Shown here piece by piece: positions 11,216 to 62,639 of a stretch of DNA of 64,000 nucleotides (position 1 is the stretch's first letter; each line of letters starts with the position of its first letter). Source of the stretch: a candidate division CPR2 bacterium GW2011_GWC2_39_35 (GTDB lineage Bacteria > Patescibacteriota > CPR2); contig LBWX01000001.1 of NCBI GenBank assembly GCA_000995065.1, forward strand, positions 223,563-287,562, read 5' to 3'. The notes under the pieces are model-generated. The model was not told where the DNA came from. It saw only the letters and a list, made by a program, of their open reading frames with translations, and made no database searches. A program made the translations under genes and the position numbers.

Positions 11216-14200
11216 ATGTCTTTAGAATTAATAGTATCAATCTTTCAGGGAATTTTTAGCGTTCTTGTTTTTGTATTTACTTATACCTGGTGGATAATCG
11301 CCGCCATTTTGGCCTGGGAAACTTACCAGAATTACCGGAAAAAGGGTTGGGTAGAAAACCTTGAACATATGCTGTTAAAAGTGGAAATACCTAAAAATAA
11401 CGATAAAGGCCCCGTAGCGGCCGAAATGATGTTTGCTTCACTTCATGGGATTTTAAAAGACAAAACCGAGCAGCAAAAAGAGGGAAGCATTCAAGAGCAC
11501 ATTTCGTTTGAGATTGTTGCCACCTTAAATTCAATCCAATTTTATATTTGGGTACCGGTACATCTAAGAGATTATTTAGAAGGCCAGCTTTATGCCCAGT
11601 ATCCCTCGGCAGAAATAACAGTCGTAGATGATTATTCAACGGATATCGATATTGATGACGACGGTATTGACGACTGCGTCGCTTCTACCGAACTCGTTCT
11701 AGAAAAAGAAGACCTGCTTCCTATAAAAACTTTTCAGAGCTTTGAAGTCGATCCACTAGCCGGCATCACCAGTGTTTTAAGTAAGCTTGACGATCCTAAA
11801 GAGCAGGTTTGGATTCAAATTCTTGCTAAGCCTCATGATAATTCTTGGCAAACGAGAGCCCAAGAATATACCGACAGCACAAGAACCGGAGGTTCGGGCG
11901 GACTTAGCATTGCTTCAATTATGGGATCCATTAAAAGAGCGCCGATTTCACTTCCAAAAACTTTAATTTCAATGGCCTTAAGAGCTCCTGAACCAGCTGC
12001 CCCGACTACTGCCCCAAAACTTTCGAAGCATGAAGAAGCCGAACTAACAGCCATAGACACTAAGGCTAATAAGCTTGGCTACGACGTCAAAATTAGAATA
12101 ATGTACCTCGCCAAAACGAAAGAAAAAGCGAAGTATCGCCTTCAAGCCGTGGTTGGCAGTTTTAAGCAGTTTAATACCACCCTAAATGGTTTCACTTCCA
12201 CCGGATTAAATGAAGGCAGGGGTCCTTTAGACGAATACCGGGCCCGCTATTTTGACGCTGGTTATCTTCTAAACATCGAGGAGCTAGCCAGCATTTATCA
12301 TCTTCCCCATATCTCCGTAGAGACTCCAAATATCAATTGGGTTTCTTCTAAAAAAGCTGAGCCACCGGCAACCTTACCCGTAGAAGGATCAGCTCCACCG
12401 GACGAACTAACTCTCTTTGCTCAGACAAACTTTAGAGGAGTTAGACAAAAATTTGGCATTAAGATGGATGATCGCCGAAGACATACCTATGTAATAGGTA
12501 AGTCCGGCGTCGGTAAATCGTGGCTTCTTGCCTTACTATCTATTTCGGATATTTACGCCGGTAAAGGCGTCTGTATTATTGATCCTCATGGTGATCTAGC
12601 CGAAAAGGTTATAACCTACGTTCCGGAACATCGCATCAAGGATGTTGTTTACTTTAATCCTTCCGACACCAATTTTCCAATTGGTTTTAATACTATGGAA
12701 TGCCCAAATCCGGACTTTAAAGAAACCATCGCCTCCGGATTCGTATCTATTTTTAAAAAGCAATTCGGGTATAGCTGGGGTCCAAGACTTGAATACGTTC
12801 TAAGATACACGATCTTGGCCCTTTTAGATACTCCGGAGACCACCATGCTTGGTGTTATAAGAATGCTTACCGAAAAAAACTTTAGACAAAAAGTCATTAA
12901 GAACATTAAAGACCCGGTCGTAAAAAACTTTTGGGAAAAAGAATATGCCACTTATAATGACAGGTTTGCCACAGAAGCAGTTGCTCCGATATTAAACAAG
13001 GTTGGTCAGTTTATTGCTTCTCCTCTTATAAGAAACATAGTAGGTCAACCAATAAGCACTTTTGATATCAGAGAAATTATGGATGAGGAAAAAATATTAA
13101 TCATTAATCTTTCTTCCGGAAGAATAGGGGAGGACAACTCAGCCTTGCTCGGTGCTATGATGATAACTAAGATTCAGCTCGCCGCCATGTCGAGAGCAGA
13201 TGTTTCAGAAGAAAAACGAAAAGATTTTTATCTATATGTCGACGAGTTCCAGAACTTCGCCACAGACTCCTTTGCTAAGATATTATCAGAAGCTAGAAAA
13301 TATCGCTTAAACTTAATTGTCGCCAACCAATACATTGCTCAGATGGATGAAACAGTTAGAGACGCTGTTTTTGGAAACGTTGGAACTCTAGTATCTTATA
13401 GAGTTGGTGCTAAAGACGCCACATTCTTAGAAAACGAGTTTAGCGGCATATTTGAGTCACATGACCTAATCAATCTAGATAATCAGCATATCTATCTAAA
13501 AATGCTTATTGATGGCGTTACCAGACAGCCATTTTCGGGCAAAATATTAAACCTGCCGGAAGCCAAACTCGACCTAACAACCCAAATTTTGCAAAACTCA
13601 AGAGAACAGTATACCAAGCCCAAAACCGAGGTCGAAGAAATGATTGCCAAACTAAGCACCCAAGGAGGGCAACCGCAAAACGAAGACGGCGAGGATATTA
13701 GAGAAGAGAGAAAAGATAATAGATACGACAACAGGCCAAACTACAACAACTCGAATAACCCTAAAAGGGATTTTACGCCGCCTGCTGTAAGCGCCGAGAA
13801 CAGAATAAAGAATGCTCCTTTAAATAGACAAACGCCAAGGGATAGAGTGGAACCAGGGCATAGCGACAAATACATTGCAAGAAGTAACCAAGAAAAACCA
13901 CCCATGAAACAACCCGTGAAACATTCGTCAAATTCTTATGTCAAAACAGATCATGCCAATAATATTCATCATGATAAAAGACCAATGGGCCAAAAAAATC
14001 CTAGTGATCGCTCCTCCAATGATCAAAGAAATCAAAAGAAATTAGATGAAGAAAATATCCGTAAAGCAATTAGGGAGGCTTTAAGTAAGAAAGAGCAGAC
14101 GTCAAACCATGAAAACCGCCAGACCGAGGTAAAGGTAAAACCTGCTCATGAGCATAAACAAACCACCGAAGACAAACCAAAACATGAATCACAAAACAAT

Positions 14201-14341
14201 AACAATAAGGTAATTACGCATGAAAACTTTAAGGATATTAATGTGATCCATCCTCATGAAAAAATAATCGTTGCCGGTAACAACGTCAAAAATCCTAAAG
14301 AGTTAAATCCCGGAGAAACAATAGTATTTAATGATAAATAA
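11216..14341 (+). CDS. membrane-anchored P-loop ATPase of the VirD4/TraD/TrwB (type IV coupling protein-like) family with ~330-aa N/Q/K/E/H-rich disordered C-terminal tail
   Basis: N-terminal hydrophobic segment; Walker A IGKSGVGKS followed by CIIDPHGDL (T4CP-like P-loop...DPxG arrangement); Walker B LYVDEFQNF; tail NRYDNRPNYNNSNNPKRD...HEHKQTTEDKPKHESQNNNNK; AAGGAG SD; 3-nt gap to upstream gene. Confidence 0.5.
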   Translation: MSLELIVSIFQGIFSVLVFVFTYTWWIIAAILAWETYQNYRKKGWVENLEHMLLKVEIPKNNDKGPVAAEMMFASLHGILKDKTEQQKEGSIQEHISFEIVATLNSIQFYIWVPVHLRDYLEGQLYAQYPSAEITVVDDYSTDIDIDDDGIDDCVASTELVLEKEDLLPIKTFQSFEVDPLAGITSVLSKLDDPKEQVWIQILAKPHDNSWQTRAQEYTDSTRTGGSGGLSIASIMGSIKRAPISLPKTLISMALRAPEPAAPTTAPKLSKHEEAELTAIDTKANKLGYDVKIRIMYLAKTKEKAKYRLQAVVGSFKQFNTTLNGFTSTGLNEGRGPLDEYRARYFDAGYLLNIEELASIYHLPHISVETPNINWVSSKKAEPPATLPVEGSAPPDELTLFAQTNFRGVRQKFGIKMDDRRRHTYVIGKSGVGKSWLLALLSISDIYAGKGVCIIDPHGDLAEKVITYVPEHRIKDVVYFNPSDTNFPIGFNTMECPNPDFKETIASGFVSIFKKQFGYSWGPRLEYVLRYTILALLDTPETTMLGVIRMLTEKNFRQKVIKNIKDPVVKNFWEKEYATYNDRFATEAVAPILNKVGQFIASPLIRNIVGQPISTFDIREIMDEEKILIINLSSGRIGEDNSALLGAMMITKIQLAAMSRADVSEEKRKDFYLYVDEFQNFATDSFAKILSEARKYRLNLIVANQYIAQMDETVRDAVFGNVGTLVSYRVGAKDATFLENEFSGIFESHDLINLDNQHIYLKMLIDGVTRQPFSGKILNLPEAKLDLTTQILQNSREQYTKPKTEVEEMIAKLSTQGGQPQNEDGEDIREERKDNRYDNRPNYNNSNNPKRDFTPPAVSAENRIKNAPLNRQTPRDRVEPGHSDKYIARSNQEKPPMKQPVKHSSNSYVKTDHANNIHHDKRPMGQKNPSDRSSNDQRNQKKLDEENIRKAIREALSKKEQTSNHENRQTEVKVKPAHEHKQTTEDKPKHESQNNNNKVITHENFKDINVIHPHEKIIVAGNNVKNPKELNPGETIVFNDK

Positions 14342-50424: not shown

Positions 50425-51747
50425 TTAAAACAAAACATTGATTTTGGCAATATTTTCTTTCTTGGCAGGAAACTTGCTCATTAGCATTAGCTCATCTCGA
50501 ATAAGTCTTGGGGTCAAAAAGTATTTCGAAACGATCTGCTTTCCGGCCCTCCCCATCTTTAAGCGAAGATGAGTATCTTCTAAGATCATGGCCATTCTCT
50601 TTGCGCATTCCATCGGCGAGTCAACCAAGCATCCGTTCTTGCCGTCAACAATTTGCAGTCTGATTCCTCCAACATTTCCGCCTATAACCGGCGTTTCTTT
50701 AAACATTGCCTCCGAAACCGTAAGCCCAAATCCCTCTTTAATGGATTTTTGCAAAATAATTTGCGATATGGTTTGAAAAGCATTAACTTGCTCCTCTGTT
50801 AGATCCTTAAGAATTTTTATATCCTTTTCTGTCTTAACATAATCCTTTAACTGCCTATAAATTGCCATGCCCTCAGGATCATCCGAAGCCGCCGAACCAA
50901 CTAAAGCTAGCTGAAGTTCTGGTATCCTTTTTTTAGTTATAATATAGGCCTTAATGACTCCTAGAGGATCTTTCCAGAGATCAAAGCGCGAGACCTGAGT
51001 TACAAGAGGCCGTCTGGTATCAACCCCCAATTTTTCAACAATTTTTCTTGCTCTAAGCTCGTCCATTTTTTTATTTTTTGGTGTTAAGGGATCGATAGCC
51101 GGAGGGATAACAAACCTTTTTTTGATTGGTAAGTCTCCAGGGATAAATTCCTTTAGAGAGAAAATACCGGCATCATACTCGTCTAAAAATCTTTTTAGGT
51201 AATCCCAAACAGCTTTGTTATTTGGGCTGACATGGATATGGCAGCGCCAAATAGCATTAAAATCCTTGCCGTCATAAAAGTGCGGTATTGCTAAAGGCTG
51301 AGGATCATGGAAAAAGACAAAATCCCATTGCTCTTTTTTCGCTTTTAATAAGTGCGCATTGTAAGCATTAACTCTTTCGTATAATTTCCTAGATTCCGAG
51401 TTTAAAACTATTTTGCCATTTCCCTGAAGCGCGTTATGCATGCCTTTAGTAATATCAAAGAATTCTTTTCCCGCCTCAATAACCTGCCAAGAGACATCTA
51501 AGCCCAAGTCGTGAAGCAATGGGACCTCGGAGCGCAGAATTTCGGCAACCCCTCCCCCGTTTGAGGTTGAATTAATATGAAGAATCCGAGCGCCTTTTAG
51601 GGGCTTTGCAAGCTCAATTAATTCCGAATAAAGCTCATCGGAAATAAGCCCCTTATAACTTCTTATGGATTTCGGATAGACCCTCACTTTTCGCATAGCT
51701 AGATATTCCCTCATATTTACGTTATAGGGCAAATGCTTACGTGTCAA
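50425..51747 (-). CDS. treT: GT4 glycosyltransferase of the trehalose synthase (TreT)-like family
   Basis: LAKPLKGARILHINSTSNGGGVAEILRSEVPLLHDLGLDVSWQVI...HNALQGN N-terminal region, which I recall as highly similar to archaeal/bacterial TreT; C-terminal GT4 E-x7-E region (EGFGLTVSEAMFKETPVIGGNVGG); likely start at internal ATG (~51714). Confidence 0.65.
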   Translation of the reverse strand: MTRKHLPYNVNMREYLAMRKVRVYPKSIRSYKGLISDELYSELIELAKPLKGARILHINSTSNGGGVAEILRSEVPLLHDLGLDVSWQVIEAGKEFFDITKGMHNALQGNGKIVLNSESRKLYERVNAYNAHLLKAKKEQWDFVFFHDPQPLAIPHFYDGKDFNAIWRCHIHVSPNNKAVWDYLKRFLDEYDAGIFSLKEFIPGDLPIKKRFVIPPAIDPLTPKNKKMDELRARKIVEKLGVDTRRPLVTQVSRFDLWKDPLGVIKAYIITKKRIPELQLALVGSAASDDPEGMAIYRQLKDYVKTEKDIKILKDLTEEQVNAFQTISQIILQKSIKEGFGLTVSEAMFKETPVIGGNVGGIRLQIVDGKNGCLVDSPMECAKRMAMILEDTHLRLKMGRAGKQIVSKYFLTPRLIRDELMLMSKFPAKKENIAKINVLF

Positions 51748-55646: not shown

Positions 55647-56243
55647 CTAAACCTCTACCCGACCCTCTAAGGCTCTTGAGACCGTTAGCTGATCGGCATA
55701 TTCTAAGTCTGCTCCCATCGGCAGGCCAGAAGCAAGCCTTGTAACTCTTATCCCTAAAGGCAAAATCAATTTTTGCAGATATAAAGCCGTGGCCTCGCCC
55801 TCAAGATTGGGATTAGTGGCAATTATGACTTCCACGACCCCCCGATCCAGACGCTTCATAAGATGACCGATAGTTAAATCTTCCGGACCCATACCTTCAA
55901 TTGGAGAAATCACGCCGTTTAAGACATGATACTGGCCCCTAAATTGCCCTGTATTCTCGATCGCCAAGATGTCTAAAGGTTCTTCAACAACACAAATGAG
56001 ATTTTGGTCACGCCTTAGATCGTCGCAAATTTGGCAAGAATCACTATCGGTTAAACTACAACAAGAAGAGCAGCTATTGATGCCTTCAGTTATCCTTAGG
56101 ACTGCCTCGCCAAGTAGTCTCACATTGTCTTTGCTTTCCTTTAGCAAATAAAAGGCCAGACGTCCCGCAGTTTTTGGGCCAACACCCGGAAGTTTTGACA
56201 GTTCGTCAATTAAATTTTGTACAGATTTTGGTATAACTTGCAT
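55647..56243 (-). CDS. recR: recombination protein RecR
   Basis: HhH LPGVGPKTAGRLAFYLL, Cys4 zinc finger CSSCCSLTDSDSCQIC, Toprim domain. Confidence 0.92.
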   Translation of the reverse strand: MQVIPKSVQNLIDELSKLPGVGPKTAGRLAFYLLKESKDNVRLLGEAVLRITEGINSCSSCCSLTDSDSCQICDDLRRDQNLICVVEEPLDILAIENTGQFRGQYHVLNGVISPIEGMGPEDLTIGHLMKRLDRGVVEVIIATNPNLEGEATALYLQKLILPLGIRVTRLASGLPMGADLEYADQLTVSRALEGRVEV

Positions 56244-56564
56244 TTAAAAAATGTTCTTAAAACTTAAGTATATCGACTCAAAGAATTTCTCCCCTGCAAG
56301 GACAAAGTAAGAAACTATGAGCATAAGAGTTACAAAGGAAATCTTAACTAACTTATTGCCTCGGACAAATCCCTTAAAAGATCCTCGGCCTTCTTCATGG
56401 TATAAGTAATTCCAGACTGCGTAAAGAATAACAAAGAATATAACACACACCGGAATTAAGTAAAGCACCAAAACCAAGATAGCCCCGAAAGAGTTAAGAA
56501 CAATATTAACAAGACCAAGCAGAAAGTTTACTAAAAAATCAAAAAACTTCGGAATCGATTTCAT
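56244..56564 (-). CDS. small membrane protein (2 TM), hypothetical
   Basis: 106 aa, between ybaB and recR, no gap to recR. Confidence 0.4.
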   Translation of the reverse strand: MKSIPKFFDFLVNFLLGLVNIVLNSFGAILVLVLYLIPVCVIFFVILYAVWNYLYHEEGRGSFKGFVRGNKLVKISFVTLMLIVSYFVLAGEKFFESIYLSFKNIF

Positions 56565-56581: not shown

Positions 56582-56854
56582 CTAAAAGCCTAAACCCATT
56601 CCTTTTGCAATATTGGCTGCAATTTGCTGAGACTTTGTCACGGCCTGCTCTAAGGCCGACTTGATCTCTCTTTCTAGTTTCTCTAAGTTATTAACATCAA
56701 TTTGAGCTTTATCAATATTTACAGACTGAACTTTTTGCTCGCCATTTATAACTATATTAACAGCACCGGCATTAACTTCTACCACTTCCGCTCTTAATTT
56801 TTTCTGAAGTTCCTTAGCTTTTTTTACTAAATCGTACTTGTCTTTTAAGCTCAT
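56582..56854 (-). CDS. ybaB: nucleoid-associated protein YbaB/EbfC
   Basis: ~90-aa helical protein with C-terminal GMGLGF, conserved dnaX-ybaB-recR context. Confidence 0.75.
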   Translation of the reverse strand: MSLKDKYDLVKKAKELQKKLRAEVVEVNAGAVNIVINGEQKVQSVNIDKAQIDVNNLEKLEREIKSALEQAVTKSQQIAANIAKGMGLGF

Positions 56855-56908: not shown

Positions 56909-59224
56909 CTATCTTGTATACAGAGTGGCCTTAATTCCCTTATCTTTATTTTCCTCAAAAACCACTCTCTTATTCCAATTACTTAAAATGTCTTTTAGGG
57001 ATGGATCTTCCTCTCCCCTTCTTCCGATTATCCAAATTCTATTTCCAGAGTTTAACATGTTTCCTTTTTTTACCATGTAATCCTCGGGCCTGTCCCAAAA
57101 GAGAGATGATTCTCCATAACCGCTCGCCTTTTCATAAATAAGCTTTATTTCTTTGTCCCCAAAATAGTAGGTAGAATTTAAAAAAGTATAAAGACTTTCA
57201 GAAAAAACGACGTCACCCTCCTTTTTTTCGACAATTACTCTTTTATAAAGCTCATCCATGGGGATATCCATTTCTTTATGCATAAAATTAATCCCTATCG
57301 AAAAAACAATTAGAAACCCCAACCCAGACACCAATCTTAACTTTTTATCTGACACACTAGAAACAGCGCTTCCCCAAATAATTAACAATGCAACCCCAGA
57401 AAAAACAAAATAGCGATTCTCATACACCGGAACCACAAATAAGGAGAACAAAAACACAATCACCATTGGCAAATAGGCATAAATAAACATCAAAAAAGCC
57501 TCTTTAAATGGCTTTTTAAAGAATAAGAAAGTCGTAATTAAAACTAAGAAAATCCCTAAGACCCCGTAGATAAAATTAATATTGGATTCGTTGCCTACAA
57601 AACTATTAAAAGTTGCAAAACCTAAAACGCTTTTGGGAATAGTTTCAATAGTCATCCATTCCGGCAAGATCCAATAGTCGGATTTTATATGCTGAAACTG
57701 ACGCAAAACGACAGAAAACCAGGGCCCGTAAAAAATTATAATTATCAAATTAACTATAATCCATTTAAAATTGTAAATGCTTAATTTACCAATAAATCCT
57801 TTTATGCCAGGTTTCGATGAATAAGCTAATACTATAAACCAATGAACAATAATAGCCAAAAAAGCATAATATTGGGTATAAACAGCTAAAATCATGGCAA
57901 TAAGATAAGCCAAAAGAAAATTATCATTTTTATCTTTAACGTAGCAAAACAAAAAATATGTCCCGAGAGTCACTAAAAAAGCAACCAAACCGTACATCCG
58001 CGCTTCTTGCCCAGAATGAATCATTAAAGGCGAAAATGCAGCAAACAAGGAGGACCAAAAAGCAGCTCTTTTATTAAATATCTTTTGAACCAGAATGTAT
58101 ACCAAATAGATTGTTCCAATCGAAACAACAAGAGACAAACCCCTTATGGCCAGAATGGATCCCCCAAATAGAAAGGTCCAAAGTTTTACCACCATGTAAT
58201 AAAAAGGAGGATGAACATCCCGCGCCGTTCTCAGAATTATATCTTCTAAGTTAAAATGAGATAGCCACAGCGTATAACCTTCGTCATGAGAGACACCGGA
58301 ACCAATCTTATATAATCGTAAAAATAAACCGATTAGAACCGGATAAATCCAGCTATTTAGATAGACTTTTTTACGACTGATAACTTCATCTTTTAAGCTC
58401 TTCTTATTATAATAACCTCTAAAAAGCTTCCATTGAATTTCTATGATTTCAAAAAACGATTTAAATACATCTTTTACAGTGATGTTTGAGTCTTTCTCTT
58501 CATCATTCCAGTCCACCGGAACCTCAACAATCGAGAAACCGTATTTTTTAGCAATTACTAAAACCTCAGTATCAAAGCCAAATCCCGGCAGGGTAACCAG
58601 AGGAAAAATTGTATCCGCTGCTTTTTTTGAAAATATTTTAAATCCGCAACGACTATCCGTAAAACATTGACCCAGCAGCACAGTAAAAGCCAAATTTCCT
58701 CCCCGAGAAATAAATTGCCTTACCCGGCCTTGTTTTAGTCCGGCAGTATAGCTCCTGGCATGACCATAAATTAAAACGTCAATCACGTCCTTTGAGGCTC
58801 TAAAAAAAGACGGAAACCATTTTTTTGTCGGCACATTCAGATTATCCGTATATCTCGAGCCGATAACAATATCGTACTCGCGAACATATTTTAAAAGCTT
58901 ATCTACTTGGTTAAAATTTGTCGAATTATCGGCATCCATAAACATTTTAAAATCGCCCTTCGACTTGTAAATACCAGACTTGACTGCCGAACCCTTACCG
59001 CCTTTTCCGGGAGGATCAACGAAGACCTCAAATCTCGAAATTTTATTTTTTTTAGAGTTGGCGATTTTTACGGAACCATCGGAAGAGTGGCCATCCACAT
59101 AAATAATTTCGACATTGTAAGGTAACTTCGGAACATGCTTTATAATGTCATCAATTGTTTTCCCTAGCTCTACGGCCTGATTTTTACCAGGAATCACCAC
59201 TGATAGAAGTTCTTTTCGAACCAC
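56909..59224 (-). CDS. fusion protein: N-terminal GT2 polyprenol-phosphate sugar synthase (DPM1/GtrB-like) + GT-C-fold polytopic glycosyltransferase (PMT/ArnT-like) + C-terminal soluble domain
   Basis: GT2: VIPGKNQ, YVDGHSSDGS, FMDADNS, IGSRY; membrane part: first-loop HDEGY (DE motif), HPPFYYMVV (hPPl-type) and >10 TM helices. Confidence 0.7.
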   Translation of the reverse strand: MVRKELLSVVIPGKNQAVELGKTIDDIIKHVPKLPYNVEIIYVDGHSSDGSVKIANSKKNKISRFEVFVDPPGKGGKGSAVKSGIYKSKGDFKMFMDADNSTNFNQVDKLLKYVREYDIVIGSRYTDNLNVPTKKWFPSFFRASKDVIDVLIYGHARSYTAGLKQGRVRQFISRGGNLAFTVLLGQCFTDSRCGFKIFSKKAADTIFPLVTLPGFGFDTEVLVIAKKYGFSIVEVPVDWNDEEKDSNITVKDVFKSFFEIIEIQWKLFRGYYNKKSLKDEVISRKKVYLNSWIYPVLIGLFLRLYKIGSGVSHDEGYTLWLSHFNLEDIILRTARDVHPPFYYMVVKLWTFLFGGSILAIRGLSLVVSIGTIYLVYILVQKIFNKRAAFWSSLFAAFSPLMIHSGQEARMYGLVAFLVTLGTYFLFCYVKDKNDNFLLAYLIAMILAVYTQYYAFLAIIVHWFIVLAYSSKPGIKGFIGKLSIYNFKWIIVNLIIIIFYGPWFSVVLRQFQHIKSDYWILPEWMTIETIPKSVLGFATFNSFVGNESNINFIYGVLGIFLVLITTFLFFKKPFKEAFLMFIYAYLPMVIVFLFSLFVVPVYENRYFVFSGVALLIIWGSAVSSVSDKKLRLVSGLGFLIVFSIGINFMHKEMDIPMDELYKRVIVEKKEGDVVFSESLYTFLNSTYYFGDKEIKLIYEKASGYGESSLFWDRPEDYMVKKGNMLNSGNRIWIIGRRGEEDPSLKDILSNWNKRVVFEENKDKGIKATLYTR

Positions 59225-59227
59225 TCG

Positions 59228-60760
59228 CTAGCTCCCTTTTACAGTGTAAATGTTAAATAAAACTCTCTTAGAATATGGGGAAACATACCACCCCACGTCG
59301 CCACCTGGAAACTTTTCTTGGATTTTGGCTAGATACGGCTTGTCTGCTTCTGAAAAAACAAAAGTATTCTTATTAGAACTTAGTTTCAATTCCGGCAAGG
59401 AATTTAAAGAGACTTCTTTCATTTCTTTTGTCTCGAGTGCCTTAATAATATTACTTCTATCATTTTGCCAATAATATTTCGAGCTTTCATTGGGCAATCC
59501 ATTCAAAAATTGTGTCGCCGCCACCAAATCTTCGTTAAAAACTTGATAAACCTCAGGACTTCCTCGCCAAGCCCAAAAATATTTTTCTATATTGAATATA
59601 GCCGTCGTTGTCATCAGCCCCGCAAAGACGATCGCAGCTAAAGCTTTTGCCAATTTATTAAACGGAAATATCTTAGCCCAACTTGCAAGCGTCCAATCTA
59701 TTGCGAGTCCCGAAAAAATAAAAACAAAAGGAATGGCGCCAACGGCCTTAAAAACATAAAGATAATTATGAGAAAAAGCTGCCGGCATGAGGCTGGCAAA
59801 AAAACCTAAAATCAAGAATTGGTATTTAGTGCTATGAAAATATTTTAAAGCAATAATAAAACCGGATAAAAAGGATATGCCAACAAACGGATCCAATAAC
59901 GGTTCGTCTTTTAAATTAGTATGCCAGATAGCCGGCGTCTCAATATTAAATAGAAGCAAACTCTTAAAAACATTTTTAGCTAAGTTTATCGGCCCAGGCC
60001 AAAAAGAAAAAGCTATTTCCGGATGCCAGATCAAATATATAACCCCCGGAAGCATAAAGCTCATAACCAAGATCTCAAAAACAAATATTTCTTTCTCATA
60101 TTTTTTGAGTATTTTTGGCTTCTTATAAAAAGCATAAATAAAAATCGGTAAAAATAAAACGGGAATAAGCCAAAAAACTAAGCTCGAGTAAAAACCTAAC
60201 CCAACCAAAACCCCTAAGACAGCGAAATAAGATTTCCTTTTTTCCCTAAAAGCTAAGGAACCGAAAATCATCATAAGTAAAAATAACACCGGGATTATAT
60301 TGGCGTGGACAATAGACCTTGATACTAGTATCGGCCAAAAAGAGAATGCTGCTAAAAAAGATGCAACTAAAGCAATTCTCTGATTAAACCAAAGCCGGCC
60401 TAATAAATAGATAAGAAAAACCGTGAGAACACCTAAGATGGCTGAAAAAAACCTCAAGGCCATCAAATGGTTACCACCAAACAAATGACTAAAACCAAGA
60501 ACTCCCGCCCTAAATAGCATGTCAGGACCTATCTTAAAGCGATCTATCGACTGAAGGATCAATACCGCTTCGTCATTGTAAAGTCCGGGCGGTACCGAAT
60601 TTAAATCTATAAAACGGATAAAAATAGATGCGAGCAATATTGCAGAGAAAGTAAGTTCATGTTTGTAGGATTTTAAGAAAGCTAAAATAACGGGCCATAA
60701 CCCTATTTTAAACTTAATCCATATAATCTTTAATTTAGTTTTTATTTTGTAAATGCCCAT
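59228..60760 (-). CDS. GT-C-fold glycosyltransferase (ArnT/PMT-like, GT39/GT83 type)
   Basis: first periplasmic loop GLYNDEAVLI (DE motif), 12-13 TM helices, C-terminal soluble domain. Confidence 0.65.
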   Translation of the reverse strand: MGIYKIKTKLKIIWIKFKIGLWPVILAFLKSYKHELTFSAILLASIFIRFIDLNSVPPGLYNDEAVLILQSIDRFKIGPDMLFRAGVLGFSHLFGGNHLMALRFFSAILGVLTVFLIYLLGRLWFNQRIALVASFLAAFSFWPILVSRSIVHANIIPVLFLLMMIFGSLAFREKRKSYFAVLGVLVGLGFYSSLVFWLIPVLFLPIFIYAFYKKPKILKKYEKEIFVFEILVMSFMLPGVIYLIWHPEIAFSFWPGPINLAKNVFKSLLLFNIETPAIWHTNLKDEPLLDPFVGISFLSGFIIALKYFHSTKYQFLILGFFASLMPAAFSHNYLYVFKAVGAIPFVFIFSGLAIDWTLASWAKIFPFNKLAKALAAIVFAGLMTTTAIFNIEKYFWAWRGSPEVYQVFNEDLVAATQFLNGLPNESSKYYWQNDRSNIIKALETKEMKEVSLNSLPELKLSSNKNTFVFSEADKPYLAKIQEKFPGGDVGWYVSPYSKRVLFNIYTVKGS

Positions 60761-61221
60761 TTTTTGTAAAGGTTAAAGTTCCATACCATGCCAAAACCAA
60801 TCCCCCAGCATTTGGCAAAATTGTTTAATACAAATGAATAATTAAAAAAATTTGATAACCCGATTGATGATACTGCTTCATATGCCAAGTTGCCCGGAAA
60901 AATCCAGATTCTAGTTAAAAAATAAATAACCAATGTTTGAATACCATATACCCCAATAACAGTAACTAATAAAAACCTTACAATCTGACTAATTTTATAT
61001 TTACCGTCGCTCGCGTTAAAAGTCCAATTTTTATTGAAGTAAAAACTGTTGGCCATTGCAATACTTCCGGAAATCATGGAGGCAACATAAGGCGTTAAAA
61101 TTAAAATATTTATTGCCAAGTTATAGAATAAGATGTCTATAAAGGTGCTAGTTATCCCAACAACCGAAAATCTGCCCACTTCCTTTTTTGTCTTGCCGTC
61201 ACCAAAGGGCCTTAAAGTCAT
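60742..61221 (-). CDS. GtrA-family small membrane protein (polyprenol-phosphate-sugar flippase-like)
   Basis: 4 TM helices, FYFNKNWTF motif typical of GtrA-like proteins. Confidence 0.65.
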   Translation of the reverse strand: MTLRPFGDGKTKKEVGRFSVVGITSTFIDILFYNLAINILILTPYVASMISGSIAMANSFYFNKNWTFNASDGKYKISQIVRFLLVTVIGVYGIQTLVIYFLTRIWIFPGNLAYEAVSSIGLSNFFNYSFVLNNFAKCWGIGFGMVWNFNLYKKWAFTK

Positions 61222-61277: not shown

Positions 61278-62639
61278 TTACGCACGTTTCTTTTCAAGAT
61301 TTTTAAAAGCCATCTGATCAGCCACGAAATAAAGTTCCACCTCACCCGTTGGTCCATTTCGATGTTTTCTAATTAGAATCTCGGCGATATTCTTTTTTTC
61401 CGTCTCCTTATTATAGACGGCATCTCTATAAACAAATAATACAACATCGGCGTCTTGCTCAATCGATCCGGATTCCCTTAGATCTGATAATTGTGGCCGC
61501 TTGTCGGGTCGATTTTCAAGCTGTCTTGAAAGCTGGGATAAAGCCACTACCGGAACATTTAATTCTCTAGCAAGACCCTTCAAGGACCTTGATATCTCAG
61601 AAATTTCCTGAACTCGATTGTCCGGATTTCGTCCCGTCATAAGCTGCAAATAGTCAACAATAACAAGCCCCAAACCGTGTTCTCTCTGAAGCCTTCTCGC
61701 TTTTGCTCTCATCTCCAAAACCGTAACTCCCGGTGAATCATCAATATAGAGCGGGGCTTCCGATAAAGTAGCCATTGCATGACCAATCTTTGGAAAATCA
61801 TCGTCATTTAGATTGCCCGTGCGGAGTTTCCAAGAATCAATTCCGGCTTCCGAACAGAGCAACCTATCCACAAGTTGCTCCTTTGACATTTCTAAGGAAA
61901 AAACACCAACCGGAATTCCTTCTTTTGAGGCGACGTGCTGAGCGATATTCATAGCAAGAGAGGTTTTACCCATCGATGGTCTACCGCCAATAATAATCAA
62001 ATCTGATGCTTGCAAACCAGCAAGCTTATTATCTAGTTCTTTATACCCGGTTGGTACACCTCTCAAGCTATCCTTATCCTTATGTAGCTGGTCTAACTTC
62101 TCAAAAGTATCAGTAAGAACAGACTTAATAGATAAAAAAGTTTGTTTATGATGCTTTTGGGAAACTGAAAACAAATTTTGTTCAGCTTTGTCTAAAATTT
62201 GATCCACATCGCTATCTTCGTCAGCAGTAAAAGCAATGATGTTTCCGGCTGCATCGATAAGGCGCCGTAAAATGGCTTTATCGGCTACAATCTTGGCATA
62301 GTTTTCTATATGCGCCGAGGAAATGACCGCACCGGCGAGACCGGCCAGATAAGAAGAACCGCCTATATTTTCCAACTCTCCTTTTCCACTTAGCCTGTTT
62401 GATAAAGTAATAAGATCAATTGGCTCTCTTTTTTCAAAAAGTTCCAACATGGCCCCGTAAATTTTTTCGTGCGTTCCTTTATAAAAATCTTCGGCTGCTA
62501 AGATATCGACAATCTTAATGATGGCATCTTTATCAATTAAGAGACATCCTAAAACCGAAACTTCAGCTTCAACATTTTGAGGCGGAATCTCTCTTAACCC
62601 CTCCACTTTATCCGGTTTTTTTCTTTGATTCTCTGCCAT
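61278..62639 (-). CDS. dnaB: replicative DNA helicase DnaB
   Basis: N-terminal DnaB domain, Walker A GGRPSMGKTS, H2-H4 motifs, RecA-like fold. Confidence 0.92.
   Translation of the reverse strand: MAENQRKKPDKVEGLREIPPQNVEAEVSVLGCLLIDKDAIIKIVDILAAEDFYKGTHEKIYGAMLELFEKREPIDLITLSNRLSGKGELENIGGSSYLAGLAGAVISSAHIENYAKIVADKAILRRLIDAAGNIIAFTADEDSDVDQILDKAEQNLFSVSQKHHKQTFLSIKSVLTDTFEKLDQLHKDKDSLRGVPTGYKELDNKLAGLQASDLIIIGGRPSMGKTSLAMNIAQHVASKEGIPVGVFSLEMSKEQLVDRLLCSEAGIDSWKLRTGNLNDDDFPKIGHAMATLSEAPLYIDDSPGVTVLEMRAKARRLQREHGLGLVIVDYLQLMTGRNPDNRVQEISEISRSLKGLARELNVPVVALSQLSRQLENRPDKRPQLSDLRESGSIEQDADVVLFVYRDAVYNKETEKKNIAEILIRKHRNGPTGEVELYFVADQMAFKNLEKKRA

Follow-up and report, generated by a model that had tools for sequence, protein, structure and literature searches.

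A locus in the genome of a groundwater bacterium of candidate division CPR2 (Patescibacteria) raises the question of why an enzyme predicted to load a sugar onto a carrier lipid should be joined, in a single polypeptide, to a second enzyme predicted to use that lipid-linked sugar, and what this fused protein does together with the products of the two genes beside it. The locus is a three-gene glycosylation cluster at positions 56909-61221, on the minus strand, of a stretch of 64,000 nucleotides (nt) from contig LBWX01000001.1, which was analysed here as a whole and is referred to as the window. Its genes encode a GtrA-family protein of 159 amino acids (aa), a stand-alone glycosyltransferase of the GT-C fold (510 aa), and a 771-aa fusion of a family 2 glycosyltransferase (GT2) with a second GT-C enzyme. 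The answer proposed here, which is considered likely as a whole, is that these components form a glycosylation system of one GT2, one GtrA protein and two GT-C enzymes, that the fusion arose by read-through between neighbouring genes and tethers the GT2 to the membrane, and that the cluster has long been part of the gene block in which it lies.

The three open reading frames (ORFs) are found where an earlier note on this DNA had placed them: the gtrA-family gene at 60742-61221, the stand-alone GT-C gene, referred to as a-type, at 59228-60760, and the fusion gene at 56909-59224, which begins with GTG and ends with a stop codon at 56909-56911. The genes had also been described as overlapping, which holds for the first two, where the overlap is 19 nt, but not for the last two, where 3 nt separate the stop of the 510-aa gene from the start of the fusion gene. 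A ribosome-binding site, AAGGGAG, precedes that start by 8 nt and lies inside the upstream gene.

The assignment of functions is based first on Pfam, in which all matches quoted for the three proteins exceed the curated cut-offs, in agreement with the domains that the earlier note had recognised. The 771-aa protein matches PF00535 (Glycos_transf_2, 4e-21) over residues 8-138 and PF13231 (PMT_2, 1.5e-10) over residues 338-465; the 510-aa protein matches PF13231 (2.3e-14) and PF02366 (PMT, 5.2e-8); and the 159-aa protein, a small multi-pass membrane protein encoded by the first gene of the cluster, covers the whole profile of PF04138 (GtrA_DPMS_TM, 4.9e-18) with residues 17-157. From PF00535, PMT_2 and Foldseek, the fusion can be divided into a GT2 domain of the GT-A fold (residues 1-275, 58400-59224) and a GT-C domain, referred to as c-type (residues 292-771, 56912-58351), separated by a linker (residues ~276-291, SLKDEVISRKKVYLNS, 58352-58399) that is delimited by low predicted local distance difference test (pLDDT) scores and by alignment limits. 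The cluster therefore holds the components of a GtrA/GtrB/GT-C-type system with two GT-C enzymes, as had been proposed for it, namely a GT-A-fold GT2 with a DXD motif, a GtrA-family protein, and, twice, a multi-pass GT-C enzyme with an acidic first-loop motif; the putative function is to form a lipid-phosphate sugar and to transfer that sugar to an extracytoplasmic acceptor.

Residues that are invariant in the respective families are all retained in the fusion, both in the GT2 domain (D49, K77, D97-A-D99, R169, D190, and K196) and in the fused GT-C (D314-E315, D336-V-H-P-P340, R361, E407, R409, and R604). In the 510-aa protein, the first-loop motif is D63-E64, and within its family E64 and R148 are invariant and D63 is nearly so. 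The motifs quoted previously are present, and those that were checked are conserved in relatives (the DAD of D97-D99, D190, D314-E315, D336-V-H-P-P340, and D63-E64). It had been asked whether the GT-C domains might be non-catalytic membrane proteins; they match PMT_2 and keep their invariant residues, and nothing points to a degenerate domain.

The AlphaFold2 model of the 771-aa protein (mean pLDDT 85.4) contains two confident domains and a disordered linker, with pLDDT < 50 at residues 276-289, and is read here at the level of the single domains. Foldseek places DPMS, ArnC and GtrB at the top for the N-terminal half of the model, and a profile of the GT2 family searched against the PDB retrieves PfDPMS first (1.1e-20), followed by ArnC and GtrB; relative to PfDPMS and to other fusions, the GT2 domain carries an insert of ~33-34 residues at ~130-169. 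For the C-terminal half, Foldseek returns ArnT (5EZM/5F15, E 7e-8, ~590 columns, TM(target) 0.53). Both single-sequence and profile searches of the PDB were made for the GT-C parts, of which the single-sequence searches were uninformative and the GT-C family profile gave no sequence match at E<=1.

With regard to topology, the GT2 part contains no hydrophobic stretch in residues 1-290 and so has no transmembrane helix of its own. GtrB and ArnC each possess two C-terminal transmembrane helices and PfDPMS four, whereas the window protein is anchored through its GT-C part. Because the linker region 274-291 is basic (six Lys/Arg) and an acidic loop with D314-E315 comes after the first membrane helix (293-308), the GT2 is predicted to be cytoplasmic and the GT-C active site extracytoplasmic without any extra helix, as the earlier note had supposed. 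The multi-pass membrane part of the fused GT-C spans residues 292-652 and is followed by a soluble alpha/beta domain (~656-771), as ArnT likewise has a soluble domain after its last membrane helix. Hydrophobic moments did not distinguish putative interface helices from core helices.

The stand-alone 510-aa enzyme, 48% identical to a 508-aa GT-C of a sister CPR2 genome, also ends in a soluble alpha/beta domain (~residues 420-510). Its AlphaFold2 model (pLDDT 73, predicted TM-score 0.75) retrieves GT-C enzymes only at E<=0.001 in Foldseek (STT3, AglB, PglB, ArnT, ALG12/ALG9, and Pmt4); ArnT has the highest TM-score, 0.55-0.58, and Pmt4 and Pmt1-Pmt2 rank as weaker fold matches than ArnT and STT3. 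Enzymes of the PMT type (GT39) transfer mannose from polyprenyl-phosphate mannose to Ser/Thr of proteins, and their eukaryotic members also carry a MIR domain. A PMT-type membrane domain with a loop-1 Asp-Glu is present in the 510-aa protein (PF02366, PF13231, D63-E64), while the fused GT-C has D314-E315 and matches PF13231 but not PF02366; Pfam reports no MIR domain in the cluster proteins. Membership of the ArnT family (GT83) is not found for either GT-C at the sequence level, the likeness being one of fold, and the 'ArnT-like' names given to related GT-Cs by the Joint Genome Institute (JGI) are generic labels. In terms of fold, the fusion resembles ArnC and ArnT combined in a single chain, but the GT-C profile has no sequence-level match to ArnT, and ArnC carries its own two helices. 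For this organism, lipid A would be an unexpected acceptor.

From these components a route can be proposed. At the cytoplasmic face, the GT2 domain would transfer a sugar, probably a hexose (a guess), from a nucleotide sugar to a polyprenyl phosphate of the undecaprenyl type, a carrier that should be available since peptidoglycan enzymes are encoded in the window. The lipid-linked sugar would then reach the outer leaflet, with the GtrA-family protein, or another factor, as candidate flippase, and the two ArnT/STT3/PMT-like GT-Cs (the 510-aa protein and the last 480 residues of the fusion) would transfer the sugar outside the membrane, perhaps to two different acceptors or sites, for which surface proteins or a cell-wall polymer are candidates. 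The fusion itself would tether the synthase to the membrane beside its consumer, fix their stoichiometry at 1:1 and co-localise them. These steps follow the literature on three-component systems, which include GtrA/GtrB/GtrC of Shigella and Salmonella phages and, in Gram-positive bacteria, CsbB/GtcA/YfhO, GtlA/GtcA/GtlB, and CsdAB/CD/EF with CflA of L. lactis (PMC8035078, PMC11127046).

The window cluster shares with these systems the combination of a GT-A-fold GT2 synthase, a GtrA-family protein and one or more GT-Cs in a single cluster, the use of one GtrA for more than one GT-C, and the adjacency of GT-A and GT-C genes; the GT-C slot after the GT2 also varies between lineages of Patescibacteria, in the manner of the serotype-specific gtrC. 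It differs in that the GT2 lacks a transmembrane helix and is covalently joined to a GT-C, and in that the cluster is neither phage-borne nor accessory but set in a conserved replication and recombination block. A plausible functional model, by analogy, for a monoderm-like cell of the candidate phyla radiation (CPR) comes from streptococcal GtrB and PgtC2, which O-glucosylate Ser/Thr-rich disordered regions of proteins (PMC12041528). There, too, the bacterium lacks an outer membrane and a GtrB-type synthase, which makes lipid-phosphate glucose, feeds a GT-C by which extracytoplasmic proteins are glycosylated, although the two enzymes are separate proteins and the comparison was made by description. 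In the 64-kb window, a search for a Ser/Thr-rich acceptor candidate found none.

The role of the GtrA-family protein admits the strongest of the alternatives. Its orthologue in sister CPR2 genomes has 161 aa and is 46-49% identical, a GtrA gene occupies the equivalent position in Saccharimonadia loci, and the protein may act either as flippase for the lipid-linked sugar or as a membrane subunit of the synthase. In the latter case, flipping would fall to the GT-C domain or to an unrelated transporter. Pfam itself defines PF04138 as 'GtrA/DPMS, transmembrane domain', a GT2 fused to a GtrA domain is known from metagenomes (P0097, 455 aa), and the CPR GT2 has no transmembrane helix, all of which would suit a subunit. 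However, the GT2 of the window is already anchored through its fusion, a single-sequence search of the PDB gave the 159-aa protein no informative match to a solved structure, DPMS included, and GtrA-type proteins are regarded as putative flippases shared by several GT-A/GT-C pairs (PMC8035078). The subunit role is for these reasons judged rather unlikely, and the flippase role is retained for the proposed route.

A second alternative concerns the GT2, which might be an ordinary enzyme acting on another acceptor, such as a lipid-linked glycan or a teichoic-acid-like polymer, with the GT-Cs using a donor made elsewhere. Its NCBIfam matches all lie far below the curated cut-offs and include the other-acceptor enzymes GpgS, TuaG and PglI; GpgS, MpgS, TarP and TarS also appear in the Foldseek list; and the transmembrane helices typical of GtrB, ArnC and DPMS are missing. 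Against this, the best profile and fold matches are the three solved types of polyprenyl-phosphate glycosyltransferase, strict synteny ties the GT2 gene to GtrA and GT-C genes in lineages that are far apart, and GT2 has been fused to GT-C repeatedly. In addition, a search of the whole window revealed no further GT2, GtrB-type, GT-C or GtrA gene beyond the cluster. An ordinary GT2 therefore appears improbable, and the enzyme is treated as a putative polyprenyl-phosphate hexose synthase below.

It had further been suggested that the fusion serves substrate channelling, by which the lipid-linked sugar would pass directly from the GT2 to the active site of the fused GT-C. The two domains do catalyse consecutive steps, have been fused repeatedly and, being one polypeptide, are co-localised as a matter of fact. 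Direct channelling is nonetheless improbable, because the GT2 is cytoplasmic whereas the D314-E315 loop after the first helix lies on the outer side, so that the product must first cross the bilayer, and because the linker is flexible. Moreover, the unfused 510-aa GT-C presumably draws on the same donor pool, and a GtrA gene is retained beside the window fusion and beside other fusions, being immediately upstream of the fused gene in the loci L017 and L020. Since the GT2 has no membrane helix, tethering explains the fusion better than channelling, and the suggestion is not upheld.

Tethering has precedents. Human DPM1 is a synthase without transmembrane helices that needs a membrane partner, DPM3, and M. 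tuberculosis Ppm1 combines a GT2 with an Lnt-like domain. PfDPMS (PDB 5MLZ) is likewise a GT2 fused to a membrane domain, in that case a GtrA-like transmembrane domain. GT-A enzymes without transmembrane helices that work with a separate membrane protein, such as GacI/GacJ of S. pyogenes, and adjacent GT-A/GT-C gene pairs have also been described (PMC8035078). The likeness of the window protein to these synthases lies in a soluble catalytic GT2 that reaches the membrane through another polypeptide or through a membrane domain fused to it. The window protein differs from them in that its membrane partner is the downstream-acting GT-C transferase itself, an arrangement of which no description was found in the literature searched; the same literature contained no account of a GT2-GT-C fusion or of such a system in Patescibacteria.

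How the fusion arose can be traced from its unfused relatives. For the N-terminal half, the closest are stand-alone GT2 proteins with 51-63% identity, which end at 276-282 aa without a transmembrane helix and of which many are named 'dolichyl-phosphate beta-glucosyltransferase' by JGI; for the C-terminal half, they are stand-alone GT-Cs of ~505 aa with 40-47% identity, covering 62% of the query, and unfused GT-Cs of 508 aa are 44-47% identical to this half across its full length. The fusion contains nearly the whole of both partners (GT2 residues 7-279/282 and GT-C residues 20-507/508). The sequence RGYYNKK, at which its GT2 part ends, matches the C-termini of unfused GT2s, and the residues after it match the N-tails of unfused c-type GT-Cs, so the linker appears to consist of the GT2 C-terminus and the former cytoplasmic N-tail of the GT-C, in a clean in-frame join that is specific to this lineage. 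In neighbour-joining trees of the two domains, both halves nest among unfused CPR proteins.

Gene order in related genomes is consistent with this picture. In Saccharimonadia, a c-like GT-C directly follows the GT2, and 17 GTDB genomes have adjacent GT2 and c-type GT-C genes that overlap or are one stop codon apart. In two other Patescibacteria loci, L001 and L002, the order is GtrA, GT-C(a), GT2, a small single-pass ORF, GT-C(b), GT-C(c), ybaB and recR, and the c enzyme is an orthologue of the fused GT-C domain. In sister CPR2 and Howlettbacteria, with otherwise identical synteny, the GT2 is a separate gene of 276 aa located 10 nt upstream of a 598-aa GT-C. The simplest history is one in which gtrA, gtc(a), gt2, gtc(c) was the ancestral order and the slot after the GT2 was remodelled in some lineages. 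As complete halves nest among unfused relatives and a c-type GT-C adjoins the GT2 in Saccharimonadia, the simplest account of the window lineage, as judged from sequence comparison, is a recent read-through between neighbours, by loss of the intervening stop.

Two observations on the slot downstream of the GT2 deserve a separate description. The 598-aa GT-C (L011 9842-11638 and L014 9842-11638) is not significantly similar to GT-Cs of the a-, b- or c-type, and is thus unrelated to the fused GT-C, which suggests that the terminal transferase after the GT2 is replaced in a cassette-like way. The small ORF that overlaps the GT2 without transmembrane helices in L001 (5791-6243) and L002 (6022-6468) encodes one transmembrane helix and a Cys-containing outer domain. 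Variants of the CPR GT2 of ~400 aa carry a C-terminal transmembrane helix and a small Cys-containing outer tail, and in six proteins of 364-403 aa (P0147, P0182, P0184, P0187, P0190, and P0192) the GT2 is fused to such a helix and a Cys-rich tail. Homology between the small ORF and these tails is not significant; only the layout is alike.

The earlier note had called the fusion unusual, which is right insofar as it is uncommon and most relatives have separate genes, but not in the sense of unique. When 1.84 billion representatives (50%-identity clusters) were scanned in full with HMMER, at least 10 other clusters of GT2->PMT_2 proteins were found, 721-768 aa long, collinear with the window protein and 23-30% identical to it. 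Nine of these (P0256, P0257, P0259, P0267, P0271, P0273, P0276, P0281, and P0395) form one clade in both domain trees, and have diversified to 25-45% identity. This metagenomic family is collinear with the window protein over nearly its whole length (23-29% identity), shares the same invariant residues and has a homologous C-terminal domain, but lacks the ~33-34-residue insert in the GT2 and is located outside the dnaB-recR block. In both neighbour-joining domain trees neither the window protein nor the adjacent gene pairs of the block fall within its clade, so that common descent of the fused state is not found. A further fused protein, P0326, is placed elsewhere in the trees, and P0085 (747 aa), from metagenomes, has the reverse domain order, GT-C then GT2. 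The sequences thus point to at least three or four independent origins of the GT2-GT-C fusion, which is rarer than adjacency and stable in at least one older family. In one locus with the older type of fusion (L017 5365-10222), the context is different: a GT2 of 365 aa and a GtrA gene precede the fusion, which is followed by an LPG_synthase_TM protein and a two-component system; the contig, of ~1 Mb, also encodes cytochrome oxidase. 'Full-length' matches in GTDB representative genomes were considered as further fusions and rejected, since inspection of the ORFs revealed two adjacent genes in all but L040, the sole single-ORF fusion among them.

Whether the fused ORF is real was examined through its other copies. 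Six assemblies, produced by different projects (GCA_003500505.1, GCA_001771075.1, GCA_000995395.1, and three from ENA), contain the 2316-nt gene in identical form or with one synonymous base changed; it was read on 19 contigs, and the members of its cluster are 99.5-100% identical. The same ORF in six independent assemblies excludes a random sequencing error and speaks against the possibility raised in the earlier note that two genes had been joined by a frameshift or sequencing error. That the fusion is an assembly or sequencing artefact, or a neutral or mildly harmful recent stop-codon loss without functional meaning, could be argued from the virtual identity of all copies in one population, the separate genes of every close relative and one low-quality JGI contig with both glycosyltransferase genes in pieces, but is very improbable given the recurrence across projects and assemblers, the completeness of both halves with their invariant residues, the clean junction, and the viability of the fused architecture in a separate family. 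On that 5207-bp JGI contig (P0124/P0125, P0130/P0131), the fusion gene is in two pieces (556 + 193 aa), as is the 510-aa GT-C gene (240 + 266 aa); residues 554-557 are not the same in P0123 as in the window protein, and the breaks probably represent assembly or indel noise near these residues.

The position of the cluster had been interpreted as an insertion into a dnaX-(dnaB)-ybaB-recR block, an interpretation that a survey of synteny, by tblastn of the window proteins against GTDB loci, does not bear out. DnaB, GtrA, GT-C (510-like), GT2, GT-C (c-like), (YbaB) and RecR recur in 15 loci of Saccharimonadia and other Patescibacteria, with DnaB upstream in 13 and RecR downstream in 14; about 15 Saccharimonadia genomes share the order. 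The order dnaB-gtrA-GT-C-GT2-GT-C-ybaB-recR is also present in sister CPR2 and Howlettbacteria, dnaX and dnaB lie upstream in these as in Saccharimonadia, and in L001, L002 and L021 the cluster is again part of the block. This recurrence identifies the cluster as an old resident of the block, with no local insertion. An origin from a phage or accessory island was considered and rejected, given the conserved synteny and a base composition that is unremarkable across the cluster region.

A reduced form of the arrangement is found in Southlakia epibionticum, a Saccharibacterium in culture, with one GT39 gene between dnaB and ybaB. Its transposon sequencing (Tn-seq) table lists RecR as SEML1_0398, YbaB as 0399, GT39 as 0400, DnaB as 0401 and DnaX as 0402 (PMC10633639 Table S1). 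SEML1_0400 is called GD/ES/ES, its insertions, 55 in the input DNA, dropping to 4, 1 and 1, a depletion that resembles that of DnaA or tRNA ligases; polarity does not explain this result, since the downstream recR retains 21-29 insertions. In the same table, a GtrB-type GT2 (SEML1_0898) and a GtrA (SEML1_0899), encoded elsewhere in the genome, are essential or growth-defective, and a second GT39, SEML1_0705, is non-essential; the text of PMC10633639 does not discuss SEML1_0400, 0705, 0898 or 0899. The glycosylation cluster is probably a core envelope function. A bolder extension, which must be called doubtful, would make dnaX-dnaB-gtrA-GT-C-GT2-GT-C-ybaB-recR an ancestral, Patescibacteria-wide operon for an essential envelope modification, to which the Tn-seq call of the same-slot GT39 would point, and the fused enzyme one end-point of a repeated drive in minimal cells to compact the carrier-lipid cycle, so that a single membrane complex would load, flip and transfer the sugar and use the scarce polyprenyl phosphate again locally.

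Several points weigh against the explanation favoured here. The sugar, the lipid carrier and the acceptor are derived from homology and analogy; the flippase role of GtrA is an assumption taken from the literature; the likeness of the GT-C part to ArnT stems from a predicted model; and the JGI name 'dolichyl-phosphate beta-glucosyltransferase' is an automatic label. The domain trees were built by neighbour joining without bootstrap. Every known copy of the fused gene comes from one near-clonal population, which gives the fused state no evolutionary depth that could be measured, and the ORF could be a young, neutral variant. Finally, SEML1_0400 is matched to the window by slot and is a putative counterpart of the a- or c-type enzyme.

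The relevance of the locus lies in the fact that Patescibacteria account for a large share of bacterial diversity while their envelopes are almost unstudied. A recognisable glycosylation system is now tied to a syntenic block of distant classes of this group, and in the single lineage that has Tn-seq data, the slot between dnaB and ybaB holds a gene that behaves as essential; this conserved placement, with its hint of essentiality, is the most useful result beyond the original claim. The repeated fusion of synthase and GT-C serves as 'Rosetta-stone' evidence that GT2 and GT-C work as a pair, and the fusion offers a single polypeptide for in vitro tests of synthase-transferase coupling. Current models are not overturned, the protein being an architectural variant of known three-component systems.

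The genes around the cluster follow each other on the minus strand between 55647 and 63958 in the order dnaX, dnaB, the three cluster genes, ybaB, a 106-aa gene and recR. The flanking genes are those named in the earlier note, with the 106-aa gene between ybaB and recR as an addition. dnaX (62639 to at least 63958) and dnaB (61278-62639) are identified from their ORFs and from Pfam on the identical genes in L005, ybaB (56582-56854) from a match to YbaB_DNA_bd (1.2e-11), and recR (55647-56243) from its RecR domains in Pfam. Scans of the region for consensus promoters and terminators gave matches at chance level only. The 106-aa gene (56244-56564) encodes a multi-pass membrane protein, and its stop directly abuts the start of recR; the protein has no Pfam family, its sole NCBIfam match is weak (DNZ54_00345 family, E 0.0045), and loci of sister CPR2 and Howlettbacteria have a 112-aa counterpart at this place.

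Two further genes of the window were recorded in passing. A TreT-like family 1 glycosyltransferase is encoded at 50425-51747 (minus strand), downstream of cysS, with a trehalose synthase N-domain match of 7e-52, and its position is conserved in sister CPR2 and Howlettbacteria loci. At 11216-14341 (plus strand), a 1041-aa protein with TrwB/VirD4-type coupling-protein and TraG-D_C domains suggests a component of a type IV secretion or conjugation-like system.

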